Notes: generated by a model not told the origin, from the sequence alone. DNA of 64,000 bases from an uncultured Chloroflexia bacterium (GCA_963704145.1 CAVPHB010000001.1:91212-155211); one strand, 5' to 3'; shown: positions 43,044 through 51,283, counted from the first letter of the stretch. Translations and numbers: made by a program.

Positions 43044-44798
43044 GTGGACACGGATCCCACTTCTCTTCACAACCGCTCGCCCGCTGCTCGCGTTGCCGAC
43101 CCGTTCGGCCGGCACATCAGGGCCAGGCATAGGGTGCCGGGTGTGGCCGTCGATGTCGAGGTGGAAGTGAGCCAGGAAGCTATCGTCCGACACTACCGGG
43201 CCGCGACACGCGAGGAGGTTGAGCAGGCCTTCCGAACCGAGGCCGCCCAGGCGGCGACTGCAGGCTATGTGCCGGCCGGCCACCGCTGGAGCCAAGACGC
43301 GCAGGGTTTGCTTTTGGCCGTCACCTACCAGCTGCCGGCGGCGGCACCCACCCCCACCCCTGCCGGCGCAGCCGACCAGTTCGCACCCTCCCAGCTGACC
43401 GCTCGGCAGGGTCAATTCGCGCCGGCCGAGGCGCACCTTGCCCCGGTTGCGGCCCAGAGCGCACGGTCGGCCCTCGTGGCACGTCCCGAACCAGTCGCGG
43501 CGACTGAGAGATACGCACCGCCGGTCGAGGCGCAACCTGCGCCCGCCCCTGAGCAGCCGCCGTTCGCCGCCCCTCCCGTCGCGCCTCCCGCCGCTCCTGA
43601 GCAGCCGCAGTTCGCCGTCGCGCCGGCACCCGAGCCGGAGCCCACGCCGGCAGTCGAGCCGGAGCCGGAGCCCGCGCCGGCGCCTGAGCCGGAGCCCGCA
43701 CCGGAGTCGGTGGCCGAACAAATCGGGCGCCAGGTTCGGCTGACCATCCAGACGATGGATCTGCATTGTGCCGGTGAGCCGCTGCGCATGATCAGGAGTG
43801 GCTTCCCGGACGTGCCCAGCCTGCCCGTGCTCGAGCGCCGGAGGTGGGTGATGGAGCACGCCGACCACGTCCGGCGCGCGATCATCCACGAGCCGCGCGG
43901 CCATCGCGACATGTATGGCGCGATCCTGCTGCCGCCCCACGCCGCCGACACCGACATGTGCCTGCTGTTCATGCACAACGAGGGCTACAGCACGATGTGC
44001 GGCCACGGAATCATCGCTATCACCACCGGAGTGATCGAGGAGGGGCTGTTCCCGGCGACCGGGCCAGTGACCACCATCCGCTACGAGGTGCCGGCCGGCA
44101 TTGTCGTGGCCGACGCGGCCACGGTGCAGCTCGAGGACGGCAGCTGGGCCGTCCAGGGCGTGCGCTTCACCAACGTTCCCGCCTACCTCGCCGCCCCATC
44201 GCTCTCGGTCCACGCCGACGGCCTCGATCTCTACGGGTCGGCAGCACAGCACGGCGCTCTGGCCATCGATATCGCATTCGGCGGCGCCTACTACGGCATC
44301 GTCAACGCGGCTGATCTGGGCCTGCGTGTCGTGCCCGAGCAGGCAGCTGCCCTGCGCCGCGTCGGAGCGTTGATCACCGACGTGCTGCGCCGTGATCACA
44401 CCCCGGCGCACCCGATCGACTCCGCGCTGGGCTTTGTCTACGGCACGATCATCGTCGACCTCGACCCGCGCTCGTCGCCCGACGGGCGCGGCCAGGGCGC
44501 CCACATCCGCAGCGCGACGGTCTTCGCCGACGCCGAGCTCGATCGCTCGCCGTGTGGTTCGGGCACCAGCGCGATCCTCGCCCAGCTCCACGCCCGGGGT
44601 CGGATGAGGGTCGGCCAGGAGATCGTCAATGCCGGGATCACGGGCGAGCATTTCCTGGGCCGGATCGAAGGTGAGACGGCGCTCGGGCCGTATGCCGCGG
44701 TAAGCACCAGCATCGCAGGCACGGCCTACGTGACCGGCTACTCGACCTTCATCGTCGACAACCGCGATCCGCTCGGCGAGGGCTTCGTCCTGAGCTAG
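43044..44798 (+). CDS. Proline racemase / 4-hydroxyproline epimerase-family enzyme (Cys/Cys type) with a ~220-aa N-terminal extension
   Basis: Uninterrupted 584-aa ORF. The catalytic core starts near 43708 (…VRLTIQTMDLHCAGEPLRMI…HEPRGH…MCGHG…DRSPCGSGTSA…). Upstream in the same frame are a short globular-looking segment and a Pro/Ala/Glu-rich tract. Confidence 0.8.
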   Translation: MDTDPTSLHNRSPAARVADPFGRHIRARHRVPGVAVDVEVEVSQEAIVRHYRAATREEVEQAFRTEAAQAATAGYVPAGHRWSQDAQGLLLAVTYQLPAAAPTPTPAGAADQFAPSQLTARQGQFAPAEAHLAPVAAQSARSALVARPEPVAATERYAPPVEAQPAPAPEQPPFAAPPVAPPAAPEQPQFAVAPAPEPEPTPAVEPEPEPAPAPEPEPAPESVAEQIGRQVRLTIQTMDLHCAGEPLRMIRSGFPDVPSLPVLERRRWVMEHADHVRRAIIHEPRGHRDMYGAILLPPHAADTDMCLLFMHNEGYSTMCGHGIIAITTGVIEEGLFPATGPVTTIRYEVPAGIVVADAATVQLEDGSWAVQGVRFTNVPAYLAAPSLSVHADGLDLYGSAAQHGALAIDIAFGGAYYGIVNAADLGLRVVPEQAAALRRVGALITDVLRRDHTPAHPIDSALGFVYGTIIVDLDPRSSPDGRGQGAHIRSATVFADAELDRSPCGSGTSAILAQLHARGRMRVGQEIVNAGITGEHFLGRIEGETALGPYAAVSTSIAGTAYVTGYSTFIVDNRDPLGEGFVLS

Positions 44799-44850
44799 AT
44801 CGGCTGGATCGCAACCAACTGGCTCGCGGTTGTGTTATCCCAGAGTGCAC

Positions 44851-45417
44851 ATGGAAGATCTCGCCGCGCGCCTGGCCGTCGACATCGATGACGCATTCGC
44901 TGACGTCGTGCGCAATCACCAGGACCTCGTGTTCCAAGTCGCGCTGCGCGTGGTCGGCGACAGCCCGAGTGCGGAGGACGTCGCGCAGGAGGCTTTCGTG
45001 CGCGCATATCGGGCGCTGAAGTCGTATCGGCCGGATCGAGTGCGCGAGCTGCATCTGCGGCCGTGGCTGGCCCGCATCTCGCTCAACCTCGCGCGCAACC
45101 ATGTCCGCGACCGGCGTCGGCACGATGTCCTCGACGACATGGTCCAGGCCGTGCCCGACGCGTCAGATGGACCGCTGCGCCTGGCTGAGCGACGCGACGA
45201 GCGGCGCATGTGGGCGCGGCTGCTGGCGGTGTTGCCGCCCCGCTTCCGGCTGGCCGTGGCGCTGCGCCACGTCGATGGCTTGTCGTACGAGGAGCTGGCG
45301 GAAGCGCTGCGTCGACCCATCGGCAGTGTCAAGTCGGACGTACACCGCGGCGTAGCGCTGCTGCGTGCGGCCTACGATGCAGAGCAGCGGCAGCTGGCCG
45401 CACGGGAGGCAGTCTGA
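44851..45417 (+). CDS. ECF-type sigma-70 family RNA polymerase sigma factor
   Basis: ATG 44851 (MEDLAARL…) lies inside ORF 44830..45417. Region 2 reads …DVAQEAFVRAYRAL…PWLARISLNLARNH… and region 4 reads …LRHVDGLSYEELAEALRRPIGSVKSDVHRG…. Confidence 0.85.
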   Translation: MEDLAARLAVDIDDAFADVVRNHQDLVFQVALRVVGDSPSAEDVAQEAFVRAYRALKSYRPDRVRELHLRPWLARISLNLARNHVRDRRRHDVLDDMVQAVPDASDGPLRLAERRDERRMWARLLAVLPPRFRLAVALRHVDGLSYEELAEALRRPIGSVKSDVHRGVALLRAAYDAEQRQLAAREAV

Positions 45418-46253
45418 TGAGTACCTCTTCTCGGAGGGAGCATGATCCGGGCGCCGACCGACTCATCACCGGCGGGCTGCGCAGCCTGCGCCAGGCTGCG
45501 CCAGCCGGCCTGGCCGACGCCGTCCTGGGACGGCTGGCGATCGGCGACGCGTATGTCGAGGTGGCCGGGCCGATCGGGCCGCTGTTCGTCGCCTTCGGGC
45601 GGCGCGGCATCTCGCTCGTCGAGCGAGCCTACGACGCGGGCCAGTTCGAGGAGGAATTCCGAGCCATGTTCGGCCGGCCGGTGCGCCGCGTGGAGCGGGC
45701 GCCGGAACTGATCGAGCGGGTGATCGACGTTCGCGTCTGGGGACGCAGCCCGGCCGGCCGGACAAAGGTGCCGCTCGATCTGCAGCAGCTGCCCGACTTC
45801 GAACGGCAGGTGTTGCTCAAGACGCTCGAGATCCCGCGCGGCGAGGTCCGGCCGTATGCCTGGGTGGCAGCCGAGATCGGCCGTCCACTCGCGGTGCGCG
45901 CGGTGGGCAATGCCCTGGCACGCAACCCGGTGCCCTTCGTCGTGCCCTGCCACCGCGTCGTGCGCAGCGACGGGCGGATCGGCCAATATGGCGCCGGCGG
46001 CCCGACCGCCAAGCGCGCCGTGCTCGAAGCAGAAGGGCTGGACACCGCCGAGCTGGAACGCCTGCCGGCCGCCGGCGTGCGCTTCACCGGCTCCGACACG
46101 ACCCACATCTACTGCTACCCGTCGTGCCGCAATGCGCGGCGCATCACGCCCGCCCACGTGGTGCGGCTGCGCTCGGGCGACGAGGCACGCCGAGCAGGGT
46201 TCCGGCCGTGCCGCGTGTGCCGCCCAGTCGACGCTCCCTTCCGCGCAGCGTGA
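45417..46253 (+). CDS. Methylated-DNA--protein-cysteine methyltransferase (MGMT/Ogt) domain protein with a C-terminal Ada-type Cys4 zinc domain
   Basis: The ATG at 45417 shares one nt with the sigma-factor stop (TGATG). It has the MGMT active-site context NPVPFVVPCHRVVRSDGRIGQY. The C-terminus TTHIYCYPSCRNARRITPAHVVRLRSGDEARRAGFRPCRVCRP aligns with E. coli Ada N-terminal TTGIFCRPSCRAR…AGFRPCKRCQP, with all four Cys present. Confidence 0.85.
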   Translation: MSTSSRREHDPGADRLITGGLRSLRQAAPAGLADAVLGRLAIGDAYVEVAGPIGPLFVAFGRRGISLVERAYDAGQFEEEFRAMFGRPVRRVERAPELIERVIDVRVWGRSPAGRTKVPLDLQQLPDFERQVLLKTLEIPRGEVRPYAWVAAEIGRPLAVRAVGNALARNPVPFVVPCHRVVRSDGRIGQYGAGGPTAKRAVLEAEGLDTAELERLPAAGVRFTGSDTTHIYCYPSCRNARRITPAHVVRLRSGDEARRAGFRPCRVCRPVDAPFRAA

Positions 46254-46263
46254 ACCAACGCGC

Positions 46264-47268
46264 GTGAGCCGGCCGGTCGCGACCATCGCGGGCACCGCCG
46301 TCATTTCCGTCCTAGTCCTGCTGGGCGTCCACATCCTGTTCCCGCAGCGGGCTGGCGTGGTGGCGTTCACGCAGGTGATCGAGCCGTTCATCGTGCTGAG
46401 CGCGCTGATCGTCGCGCCGCTGGCGTTGCCCGGTCGCGCGCGGTGGCGGATCGCCGTGGTGCTCGGCCTTGTGGCGCTGGCCGCCCTTCGTTACGGCCCG
46501 CTGCTCGTGTCGTTGCCGTCGTCCGCCGCGTCGGACGCAACGATGCACGTGGCAACATGGAATCTGCTCGCCGGGGGTCCGAGTGTAGAGCGCGCCGTGA
46601 CCGGGCTCGCCAACGCCGATCTTGACATCGTCGGGCTCCAGGAGCTCCAGCCCCGGGCTGCGGCTGCGCTATCGGCCGACCCGACCACGGCCGCGCGCTA
46701 CCCGTTCCGGGTACTTGCACCGGAATCCTCCGTTCTCGGTATGGGCCTGCTCAGCCGATACCCGATCGTGTCGCATGAGGAATGGTCGGACCCGCCGCTG
46801 ATCCGGGCGGTTGTCGCACCGGTCGGAGCTGAGCCGGTGACAGTGTTCGTCGCACACCCGCTCCCGGCCCGCATCGACACGCTCGTCGGCGTTCCGATGT
46901 CACTTCAGACCGCCCGTCGCGACGCGGACATCGCCTTCATTCGGTCACTGGTCGAAGCCGAGCTGGAGACGGGCCGGGCGGTGTTGGTTCTGGGCGACCT
47001 GAACGTTACCGAGCGGGAACCGGCCTACGCGACCTTTGCCCAAGGCCTCGACGACGCCCATCTCAACGCGGGCATAGGGCCAGGGCTGACCTGGCTGCCG
47101 GAGGAACTAGCCTTCCTGCCCTTCGGGCTGCTGCGCATCGACTACATCTTCACGAGCCCGGCCCTGCAAGCATCTGGGATGCACGTCGACTGTCGGGCGC
47201 GGAGCGACCACTGCCTCGTCGTAGCCGACATACGAGACACCAGGCTCGCAGGGAGGAGCCTCTTGTAA
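46264..47268 (+). CDS. Membrane-anchored endonuclease/exonuclease/phosphatase (EEP) family protein
   Basis: GTG 46264 lies inside ORF 45856..47268. It has three N-terminal TM helices, then …HVATWNLL…DIVGLQE…VLGDLN…RIDYIF…SDHCLVVADI (EEP catalytic motifs). Confidence 0.7.
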   Translation: MSRPVATIAGTAVISVLVLLGVHILFPQRAGVVAFTQVIEPFIVLSALIVAPLALPGRARWRIAVVLGLVALAALRYGPLLVSLPSSAASDATMHVATWNLLAGGPSVERAVTGLANADLDIVGLQELQPRAAAALSADPTTAARYPFRVLAPESSVLGMGLLSRYPIVSHEEWSDPPLIRAVVAPVGAEPVTVFVAHPLPARIDTLVGVPMSLQTARRDADIAFIRSLVEAELETGRAVLVLGDLNVTEREPAYATFAQGLDDAHLNAGIGPGLTWLPEELAFLPFGLLRIDYIFTSPALQASGMHVDCRARSDHCLVVADIRDTRLAGRSLL

Positions 47269-47386: not shown

Positions 47387-48073
47387 ATGAAGGAGAACAC
47401 CGAGCCGCAACGGCCCACGAGGCTCGACGAACGCGTGACGCCCGGCTGGGCAAGCCTGACCGCCAATGTGCTGCGCGGCGGCGGCATCGCCGTCGGCCTG
47501 CTGGTGCTGTGGCTGGGCGTCCTGACCGGTGGGTTCTTCCTTCTGCTCACGGCCGTGCTCGCAGCCATCGCGATCGTCGGCGGTTGGCTGCTCGGGAGCT
47601 TCGTCCTGAGTGAGAAGTGGCGCGCTCGACCCACGGCGCGCCTGCTGTCATTCGTGCTCGTCGTCGCCTTCCCCGTGCTGCTGGTCGTGATCGCCCAGGT
47701 CGCCGGCCCGCTGCTCACGCCCGCGCCACAGACCACCGCGTGCCTGACCGGGTCACTTGCACGCGGCGAACAGCGCAGTGAGCCACTGGCCGTTGATCCG
47801 CGCATCACCTCGATGCAGTTCAGGCTGCAGGTCACGTCCGTGGCCGGCGGCTCGCTGCGCTATTTCGTCGAGGACCCGTCCGGCGGATCCGCATGGAGTG
47901 GCCGGCAGGAAGTGGCCGGGCTTAACGAGAGCGCCGAGATCGCATCGATTGGTGGCCGGTGGACGATCAACATCTTCGGCGAGGCGGATCGGGCCGAGTA
48001 TCAGCTGGAGTGGATCGGGCAGGCGCCGGGCGTGGACCCGACCCCGGCGCAGTGCATTGAACCGAGGATCTAG
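47387..48073 (+). CDS. Hypothetical membrane protein (3 TM helices plus an extracytoplasmic beta-rich domain)
   Basis: Intact 228-aa ORF with GAAGGAG directly upstream. I do not recognise a family. Confidence 0.5.
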   Translation: MKENTEPQRPTRLDERVTPGWASLTANVLRGGGIAVGLLVLWLGVLTGGFFLLLTAVLAAIAIVGGWLLGSFVLSEKWRARPTARLLSFVLVVAFPVLLVVIAQVAGPLLTPAPQTTACLTGSLARGEQRSEPLAVDPRITSMQFRLQVTSVAGGSLRYFVEDPSGGSAWSGRQEVAGLNESAEIASIGGRWTINIFGEADRAEYQLEWIGQAPGVDPTPAQCIEPRI

Positions 48074-48963
48074 CTCGGTCGCTCGGCCCTGGCGAAGACT
48101 ACCGGCGCCTGCCAGCGGAGGTCCCGCGGCGACAGGCGGGCCAGGCGCGCCCGGGCGTTGCGCTCCAGCTCGGCCCGCCGGCCCTGGTCGAGCCACTTGA
48201 CCAGGGCGCGCTCGTCGTAGGCCAGCTTGTACTCGAGGTATGACTCCATCGTCCAATCGTGAACGAGCAGCTCCTCGCGGGCCGATGCGTTGACGAAGCC
48301 GGCCCGGCGCAGCTCGGCGGCCGCTGCCCGGCCGGAGCGGACGTCGCCCGCGTGCGGCTCGTGGCCTTCTTCGGGCTCCTCGATCTCGAGCTCGAAGACA
48401 GCCTCGTCGAACTCCTCGGCCGCCCGGAACGGCCCGGGAGCGTCCCGGTCGAGCCAGGTGACGTAGGCGAGCAGCCCGCCCGGGCGCAGGACGCGGCCGA
48501 TCTCGCGCAGGGCAGCCGGGCGGTCGGGCACCAGCTGCAGCACGAACGACGACATCGCCACGTCGACCGACGCATCGGGCAGTGGCAGCCCATCGGCCGG
48601 GCCAAGAGCGAACTCGATCCGCGCTGCGTCCGGCTGCGCCTTCTCCGCCAGCCGTCGGCGCGCCACATCGAGCATGCCCGCGGCGGCGTCGCTGACGACG
48701 ACGCGCGCCTCCGGCCAGCGCTGCACGGCGCTCAGCGCGAGTGTGCCGGTACCCGCGCCGACGTCGAGAATGCGCGCGCCGCCGGCGACCGAGCCGCCGC
48801 CGACCGCGCCGTCTGCCGTTCCCCGTCGCGCGCCGGCAGAAGCGACGGCCGCGTCGATCGCGTCCAGCAGCCGGCCCGACGTCTCAACCAGAACTGGTGC
48901 CCAGTAACGCTCGTAGTCGGCCGCGTCGGCGTCGTAACGCGCAACGATCGCGTTCGCGCTCAC
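48070..48963 (-). CDS. Class I SAM-dependent methyltransferase
   Basis: 297 aa from GTG 48963 (inside ORF 48070..49560), with a GTGA overlap with the MMPL stop. Motifs: RILDVGAGTGTLAL and …LRPGGLLAYVTW…. Confidence 0.8.
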   Translation of the reverse strand: MSANAIVARYDADAADYERYWAPVLVETSGRLLDAIDAAVASAGARRGTADGAVGGGSVAGGARILDVGAGTGTLALSAVQRWPEARVVVSDAAAGMLDVARRRLAEKAQPDAARIEFALGPADGLPLPDASVDVAMSSFVLQLVPDRPAALREIGRVLRPGGLLAYVTWLDRDAPGPFRAAEEFDEAVFELEIEEPEEGHEPHAGDVRSGRAAAAELRRAGFVNASAREELLVHDWTMESYLEYKLAYDERALVKWLDQGRRAELERNARARLARLSPRDLRWQAPVVFARAERPS

Positions 48964-51283
48964 CCGGCATCCGCCGCGGCGCGATCCTCGACATGGCTGA
49001 AGCCGAGCCGGTCGGCCAGCCGGCCGAGCGGGCCCGGCGCCCACCAGTTCCAGCGACCGAGCAGCCTCATCGTCGCCGGCACGAGCAGGACGCGGATGAT
49101 CGTCGCATCGACGAAGACGGCAATGGCCATGCCCACACCGAGCGACTTGATGATGATGATCTCGGCCAGGGCGAAGGCGGCGAAGACGCTGACCATGATC
49201 AGCGCCGCACCGGTGATCACTCCCGCAGTGCGGGCCAGGCCTTCGGCAACAGACGCGGCGTTGTCGCCTGTTCGCCGGTAAGCCTCCTGCACGCGCGACA
49301 GGAGCAGCACCTCGTAGTCCATCGACAGCCCGAAGATCATCGCGAACATGAGCACCGGGTTGCCGGCCACGGTGTAGCCGAGCGGCACGAAGTCGAACAC
49401 CTCGTGCAGATTGCCCTCCTGGAAGATCCAGACCAGGGCGCCGAAGCTGGCGCTGATCGAGAGCAGGGTCATGATCACCGCCTTGATCGGCAGCACGACC
49501 GAGCCGAAGAGCAGGAAGAGCACCACCGCGCTGACGAGCAGGGTCATCGCCACCGCCCACGGCGTCCGCTCGCGCATCGCGGCCAGGGTGTCGTAGTTGG
49601 CCGCGATGTAGCCGCCCACGCGGGTTGAGATGCCGTCACCCGGCTCGACCGCGCGCAGCGTGTGGGTCAGGTTGAGACCGGCCTGCGCGGACGGGTCGGC
49701 GGTGGTGTGAACGACCAGCCGCACGGTCGAACCGCTGACGTAGTGCGCCCGAAGACGGGCCAGCTGCTCGGGCAGGCCGGGCAGGTTCAGCGTGGCCGGA
49801 TCGGCAGCGAACAGTCGCGCCACCTCGGCCGCCGTCAGATCGGCACCTGTGAGCGGGTTGGGCAGCGCGAAGGGGCTCTCGATCGAGCTGACCTGGTCGA
49901 TCTGGCTCGAGCCGTTCCCCGTAGTCGAGCAACGCGCGATGTCGGCCTCGGAGTACGGATCGCCGGGCACATCGGCGAGGATCTCGAACGGCGTCGTCGC
50001 GCCGCCCGGGAACTGATCGCGCAGGGCGACGTAGGCGTCGCGGCTCTCGCGCCCCTCGGGCAGCACCGAAGCATCGGGCACGGCCTGGTTGAGGCGCAGG
50101 AAGGGCGATCCGGCCACGAGCAGCAGCAACAGCGTTGGGATCAGCACCAGCGTCGGGTGGCGCATGACCTGCAGGGCGACGCGCTCCCAGCGGCTGTCGG
50201 CGCGCGCCGCCGCGCTGCGGGCAGGCCGACGCGGCGGCGGATGACGCCCAGGCCGCCCGACAGGCTGAGCATGTTCACCCGCGGCCCGAGCATGCCCAAC
50301 AGAGCGGGCAGGAAGGTCAGGCCGTAGATGACCGAGCAGAGCACCACGAACGAGCCGGCGATGCCGATCGACGAGATCGCCGGCGAGGCGAAGAAGAGCA
50401 GTCCGAGCAGGCCGATGGCCACGGCGATGCCGGAGAAGGCGACCGCCTTGCCGGCCGTGCCCACGGCGACCTGGACGGCCTGCTCGACCTCGCTCCCGCG
50501 GCGCAGCTCCTCGCGGAACCGGCTGACCAGGAAGAGCGAGTAGTCGATCGCCAGGGCGAGGCCGAGCATCGTCGCCACGCTGGTGACGTAGATGCTCATC
50601 TCGGTCTGCTGCGCCGCAAGGAAGATCAACGCCAGGCTGCTGGGCACGGCCAGACCGGCAATGAGCATCGGCAACCCGGCCGCCAGCAGCGAGCCGAAGA
50701 CGACAACCAGGATCAGCATGGCGAGCGGCAGCGAGAGCGCCTCGGCGCGGCGCAGGTCCTCCTCCGACTGGGCGTTGGCATCGCCGGCAAGAGGTCCGTA
50801 GCCGGTCAGCTGGTACGTCAGCCCGGGCTGCGGCCTGATCTTCGCGCGCAGACCGTCGACCAGGTCGATCGAGCCCTCGTCGGTCGTGTTAAGCAACACG
50901 ATGAGGTACGTCGCCGCGCCGTCGAAGCTCAGGAAGCGCGGATCATCGCCTGCAGCGCGGAAGCCGAAGACGCCCTGCACGTTGGCATCGTCAACCAGCG
51001 CGGCGACGGTCTGGTCGACCTTGTCGAGCACCTCGGGCGTGTCGGTGCGACTGCCGTCCGTGGTACGCAGGACGACGATCAAGCTGCTCTGGCCCTGCTG
51101 AAAATCGCTCGCCAACCGCTCGGCCACGAGCGCCGACTCTGAGCCACCGACCAGCCAGCCGCCGGAGCTGAGTACGCCACCCGCCTGGCCGGCGAGAGGC
51201 AGGCTGGCCAGCGCCGCGAGCAGCGACAAGAGCACGACGAGCCGGCGGTGGCGGTAGACAAACGCGCCCCACGCAGAGAACAA
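48960..51283 (-). pseudogene. MMPL/RND-superfamily membrane transporter, one frame switch (~50190)
   Basis: The N-terminal half is in ORF 50141..51283 (…GLALAIDYSLFLVSRFREEL…). The C-terminal half is in ORF 48960..50165 (…FGLSMDYEVLLLSRVQEAY…GRWNWWAP…). Confidence 0.8.

Follow-up and report, generated by a model that had tools for sequence, protein, structure and literature searches.

The locus lies on the plus strand of a 64-kb window, the whole stretch of DNA analysed, and is made up of an ECF-type promoter-like motif (44811–44838), a gene for an ECF (group 4) sigma factor (44851–45417), a gene for a 278-aa MGMT/Ada protein (45417–46253) and a gene for a membrane-anchored endonuclease/exonuclease/phosphatase-fold (EEP) protein (46264–47268). 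The sigma factor, 188 aa long, consists of a sigma2 and a sigma4 domain only (Sigma70_r2, PF04542, 4e-18; Sigma70_r4_2, PF08281, 5e-12) and passes the ECF superfamily model TIGR02937 with 87.2 bits (cut-off 42.9), a combination characteristic of ECF (group 4) sigma-70 factors; the reading of this gene as an ECF sigma gene in a preliminary description of the DNA is thus borne out. The 188-aa protein reached none of the equivalog models, and an identical protein is present in public data (P0121). No canonical anti-sigma gene was found adjoining the sigma gene. What follows it directly is the MGMT/Ada gene, whose start codon (ATG, 45417–45419) has base 45417 in common with the sigma stop codon (TGA, 45415–45417). 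This 1-nt overlap had been reported correctly in the preliminary description, as had every other sequence-level feature that it listed for the block.

The 278-aa protein opens with an N-terminal extension (aa 1–44, 45417–45548), continues with MGMT/Ogt N- and C-domains (45549–46037) and then carries an Ada-type Cys4 zinc methyl-phosphotriester acceptor domain (aa 219–270, 46071–46226). The MGMT part matches DNA_binding_1 (PF01035; aa 127–207, 1.5e-28, 98.9 bits, cut-off 27), TIGR00589 (85 bits, cut-off 46.4) and the structure of Mtb Ogt (4bhb, 1.3e-17), and its active-site motif PCHRVV is intact, as had been claimed, with the cysteine at position 178 (codon 45948–45950). The presence of both DNA_binding_1 and the PCHR cysteine is the hallmark of the MGMT/Ogt family, and the protein is inferred to be a catalytically intact suicide O6-alkylguanine alkyltransferase. 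Among the Pfam families that the preliminary description named for 45417–46253, PF01035 and PF02805 match, while PF02870, the ribonuclease-like MGMT N-domain, gives no Pfam match at E ≤ 0.1 in the 278-aa protein. The MGMT N-terminal-like segment itself stands, since aa 53–203 align with residues 24–171 of Ada-C (1sfe) and with positions 198–338 of NCBIfam PRK15435, but the first ~44 residues fall outside MGMT. The zinc domain is recognised by Ada_Zn_binding (PF02805, 2e-11, 44.1 bits, cut-off 23), and C233, C237, C265 and C268 align with Cys38, 42, 69 and 72 of E. coli N-Ada (1adn, 9e-7), which agrees with the domain assignment made previously; Cys233 (codon 46113–46115) is the counterpart of Ada Cys38. 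The 278-aa protein showed neither an HxxxCxxC motif nor a TM helix nor an AraC HTH, and there was no match to any HTH family. The preliminary description was therefore right that the zf-HC2 motif and TM helix are missing, that the Ada domain order is reversed and that the AraC HTH is absent. With 99.8 bits, the protein falls far below the cut-off of the Ada equivalog NF011964 (345).

The PCHR motif is kept in every sigma-linked member (58/58 from metagenomes, 22/22 from genomes). The Ada zinc domain is present in 43 of the 58 sigma-linked metagenome members, and its four cysteines are conserved among the relatives that bear it. It is missing from short forms, which make up about one quarter of the members (Stackebrandtia, Actinomycetospora); these have neither a ZAS motif nor the Ada zinc domain and retain the sigma neighbour, the extension and PCHR. 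The MGMT cysteine is the sole invariant reactive residue across all forms (58/58), and the view that the zinc domain is an essential part of the module has to be given up, as about a quarter of the sigma-linked members do without it.

In all 22 informative genome loci (Chloroflexota, Acidimicrobiales and actinomycetes) and in 52 of 55 metagenome loci, the gene directly 5' of the MGMT gene encodes an ECF sigma factor. The pairing whose conservation the preliminary description had left to be checked is thus found in 74 of 77 informative loci, and the MGMT/Ada protein occupies a conserved anti-sigma slot, as had been proposed. The pair is also present in cultured Nonomuraea, Actinomadura and Stackebrandtia (Stackebrandtia nassauensis). 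It is the gene pair alone, without flanking genes, that is kept across two phyla, Chloroflexota and Actinomycetota; the genes around the module are mostly unrelated to DNA repair. Most gene junctions are ATGA, GTGA or TGATG overlaps (49/63 at offset -1). In-frame sigma-MGMT-Ada fusions are rare, namely P0099 and the divergent P0356 (36% identity); three further candidates (P0320, P0376 and P0324) turned out to be frameshifted translations and were rejected.

The promoter-like motif, GCAACC-N14-TGTGTTAT, ends 12 nt 5' of the sigma ATG, a near-leaderless arrangement. It recurs with the same spacing 5' of sigma in all 13 Chloroflexota genome loci that include upstream DNA, regardless of the upstream gene, and a degenerate version, GCA[AG]C-N14-16-GTGTT, precedes sigma in the Acidimicrobiales loci, in L023 and L025–27, and in Nonomuraea and Actinomadura. 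A candidate for the ECF-type autoregulated promoter that the preliminary description had suggested looking for upstream of 44851 is thus present at 44811–44838. The motif occurs once in the 64-kb window (0.00 expected); neither there nor across ~280 kb of related loci was a further convincing copy found, and no conserved sequence was seen upstream of the -35 element. Presumably this motif drives autoregulation of the operon.

The EEP gene starts with GTG at 46264, 10 nt past the MGMT/Ada stop codon, as previously described, and no terminator-like site was found between the two genes. Its product has an N-terminal TM/hydrophobic region and matches PF03372 (4e-22). The gene is found downstream of the pair only in close Limnocylindria-type relatives (L001, L002, L005, L009, L025–27 and L029); all Actinomycetota loci lack it, as do the remaining Chloroflexota loci whose downstream DNA is long enough to tell, so it does not belong to the conserved unit. 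The EEP gene is probably co-transcribed with the module, and its distribution suggests that it is probably a lineage-specific passenger outside the core. The idea that the EEP protein is the true anti-sigma factor was considered and rejected, since it begins directly with TM helices and lacks a cytoplasmic N-domain, and its conservation is confined to close relatives.

The N-terminal extension of the 278-aa protein is a conserved segment in its own right, which the preliminary description had overlooked. Across members it is 30–55 aa long, with the consensus L..L....AP..L...VL..hGL.D.Y., and it accompanies the sigma gene strictly: 78 of 78 sigma-linked MGMTs have it, whereas none of six independent relatives without it is linked to sigma (0/6; Fisher p=2.5e-9). 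In two of these, L034 and L117, the same neighbour, Pro_racemase, abuts the extension-less MGMT-Ada gene. The likely origin of the extension is indicated by long forms, in which a zf-HC2 domain is fused to MGMT+Ada_Zn (P0268, 27.2 bits; P0283, 24.3 bits; P0266, 22.2 bits; cut-off 22.2). The N-terminal profile of these long forms matches the structures of the anti-sigma factors RsiW (3.9e-7) and RslA (5.6e-6), and also DdvA and ChrR; the RsiW match is full-length and takes in the AP..F...V helix, and an ECF sigma gene directly precedes one of the long forms. Helices 1–3 and the zinc motif of class I anti-sigma factors (PF13490) are present in P0268, P0283 and P0266, whereas the 278-aa protein gives no match to this model. 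Its extension aligns instead with the segment that follows HxxxCxxC in the long forms (hhalign, 78% probability, E 1.8e-5, 29 columns). Used by itself as a query against solved structures, the extension profile returned chance-level matches and no anti-sigma structure. Most of the coevolving contacts between class I anti-sigma factors and regions 2.1 and 2.2 of sigma2 are made by helix 4, which blocks core binding (PMC7406223). I propose that the extension is a remnant of a class I anti-sigma domain, comprising the end of helix 3 and helix 4, and a putative sigma2 binder.

Structure prediction added little. AlphaFold2, given the 278-aa protein and 46 homologues, in an alignment in which no row fell below 69% identity, returned a model with pLDDT 66 and pTM 0.42 in which the MGMT core itself was poorly modelled; the extension appears there as two helices (11–24 and 32–39). 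The natural fusion P0099, used as a stand-in for the complex with a 6+30-row alignment set, gave pLDDT 64 and pTM 0.36, a result that is uninformative rather than negative. The pLDDT of the extension in the fusion (64–70) is no higher than in the lone protein (~75).

Judging from these homologies, the most likely role of the 278-aa protein is that of an anti-sigma factor in the cytoplasm, with suicide alkyl acceptors as its sensors. On balance I lean slightly towards a two-gene module in which this protein is a soluble anti-sigma factor and sigma is set free upon alkylation. The first ~44 residues, corresponding to helix 4 and the preceding end of helix 3, would act on sigma domain 2, helix 4 covering its core-RNA-polymerase-binding face, while the remainder would consist of the suicide O6-alkylguanine alkyltransferase followed by the Ada-type Cys4-zinc methyl-phosphotriester acceptor. 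Translational coupling would fix the sigma:partner ratio, the near-leaderless operon promoter would be recognised by sigma itself, and the unalkylated partner would keep sigma inactive. Repair of alkylated DNA would alkylate the partner irreversibly on Cys178 and/or Cys233 and thereby inactivate or destabilise it; sigma would be released and the operon transcribed again, so that the single-use repair protein would be replaced and any further genes of the regulon switched on. Human AGT becomes unstable once it is alkylated and is then degraded, which offers a ready mechanism of release. Sigma-partner binding, alkylation-triggered release and autoregulation are the inferred elements of this scheme, which suggests that alkylation damage is the input of the switch, consuming the repair protein and releasing sigma. 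A more specific, tentative version is that the switch counts alkyl lesions stoichiometrically, one repair event consuming one anti-sigma factor and freeing one sigma factor, and that the single-use repair protein is made anew from an ECF promoter dedicated to it. If this were true, an adaptive response widespread in soil Chloroflexota and Actinomycetota would have evolved independently of the Ada/AraC route, when a repair protein of the MGMT(-Ada zinc) type had an anti-sigma helix grafted onto it.

Several observations would also suit another arrangement, which I regard as unlikely, in which the MGMT/Ada protein is a mere repair effector that is co-transcribed with sigma and makes no contact with it, sigma being controlled at the level of transcription or through an anti-sigma factor encoded elsewhere. 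Output genes are frequent in ECF operons, stand-alone MGMT+Ada_Zn repair genes occur without sigma, and AlphaFold2 gave no confident inter-domain packing in the fusion; moreover, gene overlaps of 4 nt are a common feature of high-GC genomes and their operons, and the overlap alone is for that reason weak evidence. The excerpted description of ECF122, a group without a recognised anti-sigma factor (PMC8999054), points the same way. However, a mere effector leaves unexplained why an extension of 30–55 aa occurs only with an upstream sigma gene (78 versus 0/6), why this extension aligns with anti-sigma domains, why a full zf-HC2 domain is present in the long forms, and why the gene pair, rather than its flanking genes, is conserved across two phyla.

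Granting that the partner is an anti-sigma factor, its release could be brought about by something other than alkylation, namely thiol oxidation or an electrophile at the Cys4-zinc site, or competition between DNA and sigma binding. Zinc-thiolate redox sensors are enriched among soluble class I anti-sigma factors (PMC7406223), the long forms carry a ZAS motif in addition, and the Ada domain, too, is a Cys4 zinc site, for which RsrA-type zinc anti-sigma factors set a precedent of the redox type. Such a signal is nonetheless improbable, as the short forms have neither the ZAS motif nor the Ada zinc domain and yet keep sigma, extension and PCHR, the MGMT cysteine being the only reactive residue invariant in all forms (58/58). 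I give little credence to the converse idea that the partner is a positive co-factor which, once alkylated, binds DNA and/or sigma and helps the ECF holoenzyme to initiate. Both MGMT and Ada zinc domains bind DNA, and contacts between Ada and sigma have a precedent: Landini and Busby reportedly showed that methylated E. coli Ada contacts region 4 of sigma70. Natural sigma-partner fusions exist, too, and fusing an inhibitor to its target would be expected to be deleterious. A co-factor is, however, hard to reconcile with the lack of a conserved candidate binding site upstream of the -35 element, with the homology of the extension to inhibitory anti-sigma domains, and with the absence of the AraC HTH from which Ada derives its sequence specificity.

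Among alternative sigma factors, those of the ECF type form the largest class, and for many of their groups there is no established control mechanism. If the anti-sigma reading were confirmed, covalent, stoichiometric read-out of DNA alkylation would be a new class of input for sigma/anti-sigma signalling, and bacteria would have solved the problem of adapting to alkylation a second time, independently; it would also follow that a single anti-sigma helix is enough to tether sigma. Since the module is present in cultured Nonomuraea, Actinomadura and Stackebrandtia nassauensis, experiments are feasible.

The system proposed here combines traits of several known ones. Like the genes of class I (ASDI/zf-HC2) anti-sigma factors (RsiW-SigW, RslA-SigL, ChrR-SigE, RsrA-SigR), the MGMT/Ada gene directly follows that of an ECF sigma factor and would be autoregulated; the long-form relatives hold the complete domain with HxxxCxxC, and the window protein is soluble, as are RsrA and ChrR. 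It differs from class I proteins in having neither helices 1–3 nor the zinc motif, and in carrying paired suicide alkyl acceptors where their sensors are a redox zinc site, a cupin or a periplasmic domain. With E. coli Ada it has in common both alkyl-acceptor domains with their key residues and, if the proposal is correct, irreversible self-alkylation as the signal. Conversely, the zinc domain is N-terminal in Ada and C-terminal here, and Ada binds its promoter directly through the AraC HTH, whereas the output here would be sigma release. The catalytic domain is homologous to that of Ogt/MGMT proteins (Mtb Ogt, 4bhb; human AGT, 1eh6), with the Tyr, Arg-finger, Asn, PCHR and Glu positions conserved, and would likewise be a single-use, stoichiometric enzyme; canonical MGMTs (L095, L102, L024) have no N-terminal extension, Ada zinc domain or sigma neighbour. 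The stand-alone MGMT+Ada_Zn proteins P0297, P0312, P0323 and L034 share the domain order and conserved cysteines (40–57% identity), but their first residues already belong to the first MGMT strand, so that the extension is missing, and no sigma gene lies upstream; their gene neighbours are a Y-family polymerase or Pro_racemase.

The nearest catalogued group is ECF122 of the classification of Casas-Pastor et al. (2021), which the excerpted text of a review (PMC8999054) presents as having no recognised anti-sigma factor, an unknown mechanism and a conserved adjoining 6-O-methylguanine DNA methyltransferase as candidate regulator. The sigma-MGMT pairing, which the preliminary description had taken to be undescribed, is thus already on record. 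The window shows the same context, an adjoining 6-O-methylguanine DNA methyltransferase and no canonical anti-sigma factor, and is set beside ECF122 by this excerpted group description; the example given there is actinobacterial, and the actinomycete loci found here have exactly such a pair, whereas the window comes from a Chloroflexota (Limnocylindria-like) lineage. The ECF122 exemplar, WP_057211282.1 (Cellulomonas sp. Root930), is absent among the 120 sigma profile matches listed, the main text of the primary classification paper, as excerpted, does not mention the group, and no published experimental link of ECF or anti-sigma factors to alkyltransferases was found beyond that review. Its excerpted ECF122 text contains neither the Ada zinc domain, nor the N-terminal extension, nor the extension's anti-sigma homology. 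What is new here is the restriction of the extension to sigma-linked MGMTs and its apparent likeness to the part of anti-sigma domains that follows the zinc motif. A catalogue entry is thereby turned into a concrete proposal, in which the adjoining MGMT would act as a degenerate class I anti-sigma factor and a suicide repair enzyme would serve as its sensor, a sensor doubled in most members by an Ada-type zinc methyl acceptor.

The product of the window's ECF sigma gene (ATG 44851 to TGA 45415-45417, + strand) is 188 aa long and has both a Sigma70_r2 and a Sigma70_r4_2 domain; it passed the ECF superfamily model TIGR02937, and the same model search reached no equivalog for it. As the preliminary description stated, the sigma stop codon and the partner gene's ATG (45417) share one base, the last of the former and the first of the latter. 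The partner gene runs to 46253 on the same strand and encodes 278 aa. The domains earlier ascribed to this partner were largely recovered: the MGMT catalytic domain (Pfam DNA_binding_1, aa 127-207, 1.5e-28) with an intact PCHRVV active site (Cys178), and the Ada zinc domain (Ada_Zn_binding, aa 219-270, 2e-11), whose C233, C237, C265 and C268 fall on the E. coli N-Ada residues Cys38, 42, 69 and 72. No zf-HC2, transmembrane segment or HTH domain was found in the 278-aa protein, again as described. The MGMT N-terminal segment had no match to the Pfam N-domain model, but aa 53-203 can be aligned with 1sfe, the C-terminal fragment of Ada.

Upstream lies a Pro_racemase gene (43044-44798, +, 584 aa). 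The gene for the EEP-fold protein, which has an N-terminal membrane region, starts at GTG 46264 (+), ten nucleotides past the partner stop, where it had been placed. Further downstream, genes for a class I methyltransferase and an MMPL protein lie on the opposite strand, and no canonical anti-sigma gene was found among the neighbours of the pair in the window. The Pro_racemase carries a Pro/Ala-rich low-complexity N-terminal extension of about 237 aa, and its relatives vary much in length (458 aa in locus L025, 781 aa in locus L026). After the EEP gene comes an ORF of 228 aa (47387-48073, +) that contains hydrophobic segments and has a good Shine-Dalgarno sequence; it gave no Pfam match and has no equivalent at that position in L025 or L026. 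The MMPL ORF (48960-50165, -) has 401 aa versus 789 aa for the syntenic gene of L026, which may point to a frameshift, or to an interruption of the gene further upstream.

The sigma-partner pair is real and conserved. Scanning one genome per species gave 24 relatives of the 278-aa protein, and an ECF sigma gene lies directly upstream in 22/22 genome loci with sufficient upstream DNA and >40% identity; the pairing thus recurs elsewhere, namely in Chloroflexota (Limnocylindria-type MAGs), Acidimicrobiales, Stackebrandtia, Actinomycetospora and another actinomycete, with overlapping or abutting stop and start codons (TGATG, ATGA, GTGA, TAGATG). A metagenome scan by family profile, in which 80 of 582 relatives were kept, found the sigma in 52 of the 55 loci whose upstream DNA measured 500 nt or more, and a 4-nt overlap at 49/63 junctions. 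PCHR is kept in all 58 complete partners of that scan, and the Ada-type Cx3C...CxxC domain in 43 of them, the rest being short forms of 181-211 aa. Cultured Stackebrandtia nassauensis has the pair with MGMT only, Nonomuraea and Actinomadura coerulea with MGMT+Ada_Zn. The genes flanking the pair change between lineages, and the EEP gene, which the preliminary description put in the same block, was found 3' of it in the window's close relatives only. What is conserved at the core is therefore sigma plus MGMT, to which the Ada zinc domain is often added, while the EEP gene is a local passenger.

Repair-related neighbours were seen at two loci only: in an actinomycete (L023:1789-2640) the gene after the pair, overlapping the MGMT gene end, encodes a 2OG-Fe(II) oxygenase of PF09859 ('Oxygenase-NA'), whose annotation makes it active on damaged DNA, and at L018 a 5'-3' exonuclease follows. 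The sigma-MGMT-Ada pair of Nonomuraea has, 2-3.6 kb upstream, a conventional ECF sigma and zf-HC2 anti-sigma pair plus thioredoxin (L109:409-1712), which makes a convenient experimental comparison within one locus.

The preliminary description had proposed looking upstream of 44851 for an ECF-type promoter, and one is present: GCAACC-N14-TGTGTTAT, at 44811-44838. The same motif precedes the sigma gene in every Chloroflexota locus regardless of the preceding gene, ending about 12 nt before the sigma ATG, and GCA[AG]C[CG]-N13-14-GGTGTT occupies the equivalent place in Acidimicrobiales, another actinomycete, Nonomuraea and Actinomadura. Read as GCAAC-N18-GTT, it resembles SigH/SigR/SigE-type ECF promoters. 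Its conservation would imply autoregulation and a near-leaderless transcript, and its position places the sigma start at 44851 and not at TTG 44830. A single copy of the motif lies in the window (0.00 expected), and about 280 kb of related loci have it almost exclusively at the operon, so that no wider regulon can be named from the DNA searched. The -35 element lies within an imperfect inverted repeat, CGCAACC ... GGTTGTG (44809-44833), spanning the promoter spacer; the repeat can also be seen in loci L002 and L003, but not in most others.

In the family alignment, the canonical MGMT start, a strand Y-x-x-V-x-GPIGPL, falls at residue 45 of the window protein, and the 30-55 residues before it make up an extension that is conserved (consensus L..L....AP..L...VL..hGL) and was modelled as two helices in an AlphaFold run of low confidence. 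It is present in 78/78 sigma-linked members examined, and six independent sigma-less relatives, one behind a Y-family polymerase and two being canonical MGMTs, start directly at the MGMT strand, an association with no exceptions (Fisher p = 2.5e-9). In two of the six, L034 (1147-1941) and L117 (1083-2899), which belong to separate lineages, Pro_racemase abuts an MGMT-Ada_Zn gene that lacks both sigma and extension, as if these had come or gone together, as a single block between the same two neighbours. Short MGMTs at six metagenome loci (L099, L100, L101, L103, L104, L106) carry a different extension, RRLHxRLVxEAExxGVLDVAYRT, and have far more divergent sigma neighbours (tblastn E 1e-5 to 1e-7); the type of extension seems to follow that of the sigma.

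More distant partner relatives were gathered with P0099 as query. This protein (463 aa) and P0356 (464 aa), only 36% identical, are in-frame natural fusions of an ECF sigma to an MGMT-Ada_Zn partner; three further candidates, P0320, P0376 and P0324, were rejected as frameshifted translations. Many of the distant relatives (297-319 aa) have a longer N-terminus with an N-terminal Cys and HxxxCxxC, and three reach the Pfam zf-HC2 cut-off of 22.2 bits (P0268 27.2, P0283 24.3, P0266 22.2). Among solved anti-sigma factors of class I, the profile of this N-terminus matches RsiW over its full length (3.9e-7) and RslA (5.6e-6), as well as DdvA and ChrR. An ECF sigma gene lies directly upstream of one long form, and another has a fragment of sigma4 where its contig ends. 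The window extension aligns to the long-form segment after the zinc motif (hhalign 78% probability, E 1.8e-5), a segment that takes in the linker and helix 4 along with the end of helix 3. Published coevolution and crystal data show that helix 4 of class I anti-sigma factors binds sigma2 regions 2.1 and 2.2 and so keeps the sigma from binding the RNA polymerase core (PMC7406223).

On the most fitting reading, the family consists of cytoplasmic anti-sigma factors with an MGMT sensor, usually plus an Ada zinc domain. It comprises three forms, with a full zinc-finger domain, with a helix-4 remnant plus MGMT and Ada (as in the window), and with a helix-4 remnant plus MGMT; in all, the MGMT cysteine is the invariant reactive residue. 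The extension data agree poorly with a partner that is only a co-transcribed effector. An anti-sigma factor sensing another signal, such as thiol oxidation, is a weakened alternative because the short forms have no zinc site at all, and a positive, Ada-like co-factor is a further rival. Both AlphaFold runs were low in confidence and bear neither way on sigma-partner binding.

Most likely, sigma and partner are a sigma/anti-sigma pair whose sensor domain is of a new kind. The unalkylated partner would sequester the sigma, and alkyl transfer would inactivate or destabilise it; human AGT, once alkylated, is destabilised and degraded. The sigma would then be set free and the operon expressed again, replenishing the single-use partner. 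I infer partner binding, release on alkylation and induction; the pair is directly testable in cultured actinomycetes.

The preliminary description knew of no earlier account of such a module. Literature searches found no paper testing the sigma-MGMT association, noting the Ada zinc domain, or recognising the long forms with zf-HC2 or the remnant of an anti-sigma domain. The pairing itself is already catalogued, and the statement is only partly right: the group description in a review of non-canonical ECFs puts ECF122 among the groups of unknown mechanism without an anti-sigma factor, with conserved 6-O-methylguanine DNA methyltransferases in its neighbourhood as candidate regulators per the 2021 reclassification (PMC8999054). 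The main new point is the N-terminal extension as a putative anti-sigma remnant. As far as that group description goes, ECF122 and the window pair have in common a methyltransferase gene beside an ECF sigma (PMC8999054).
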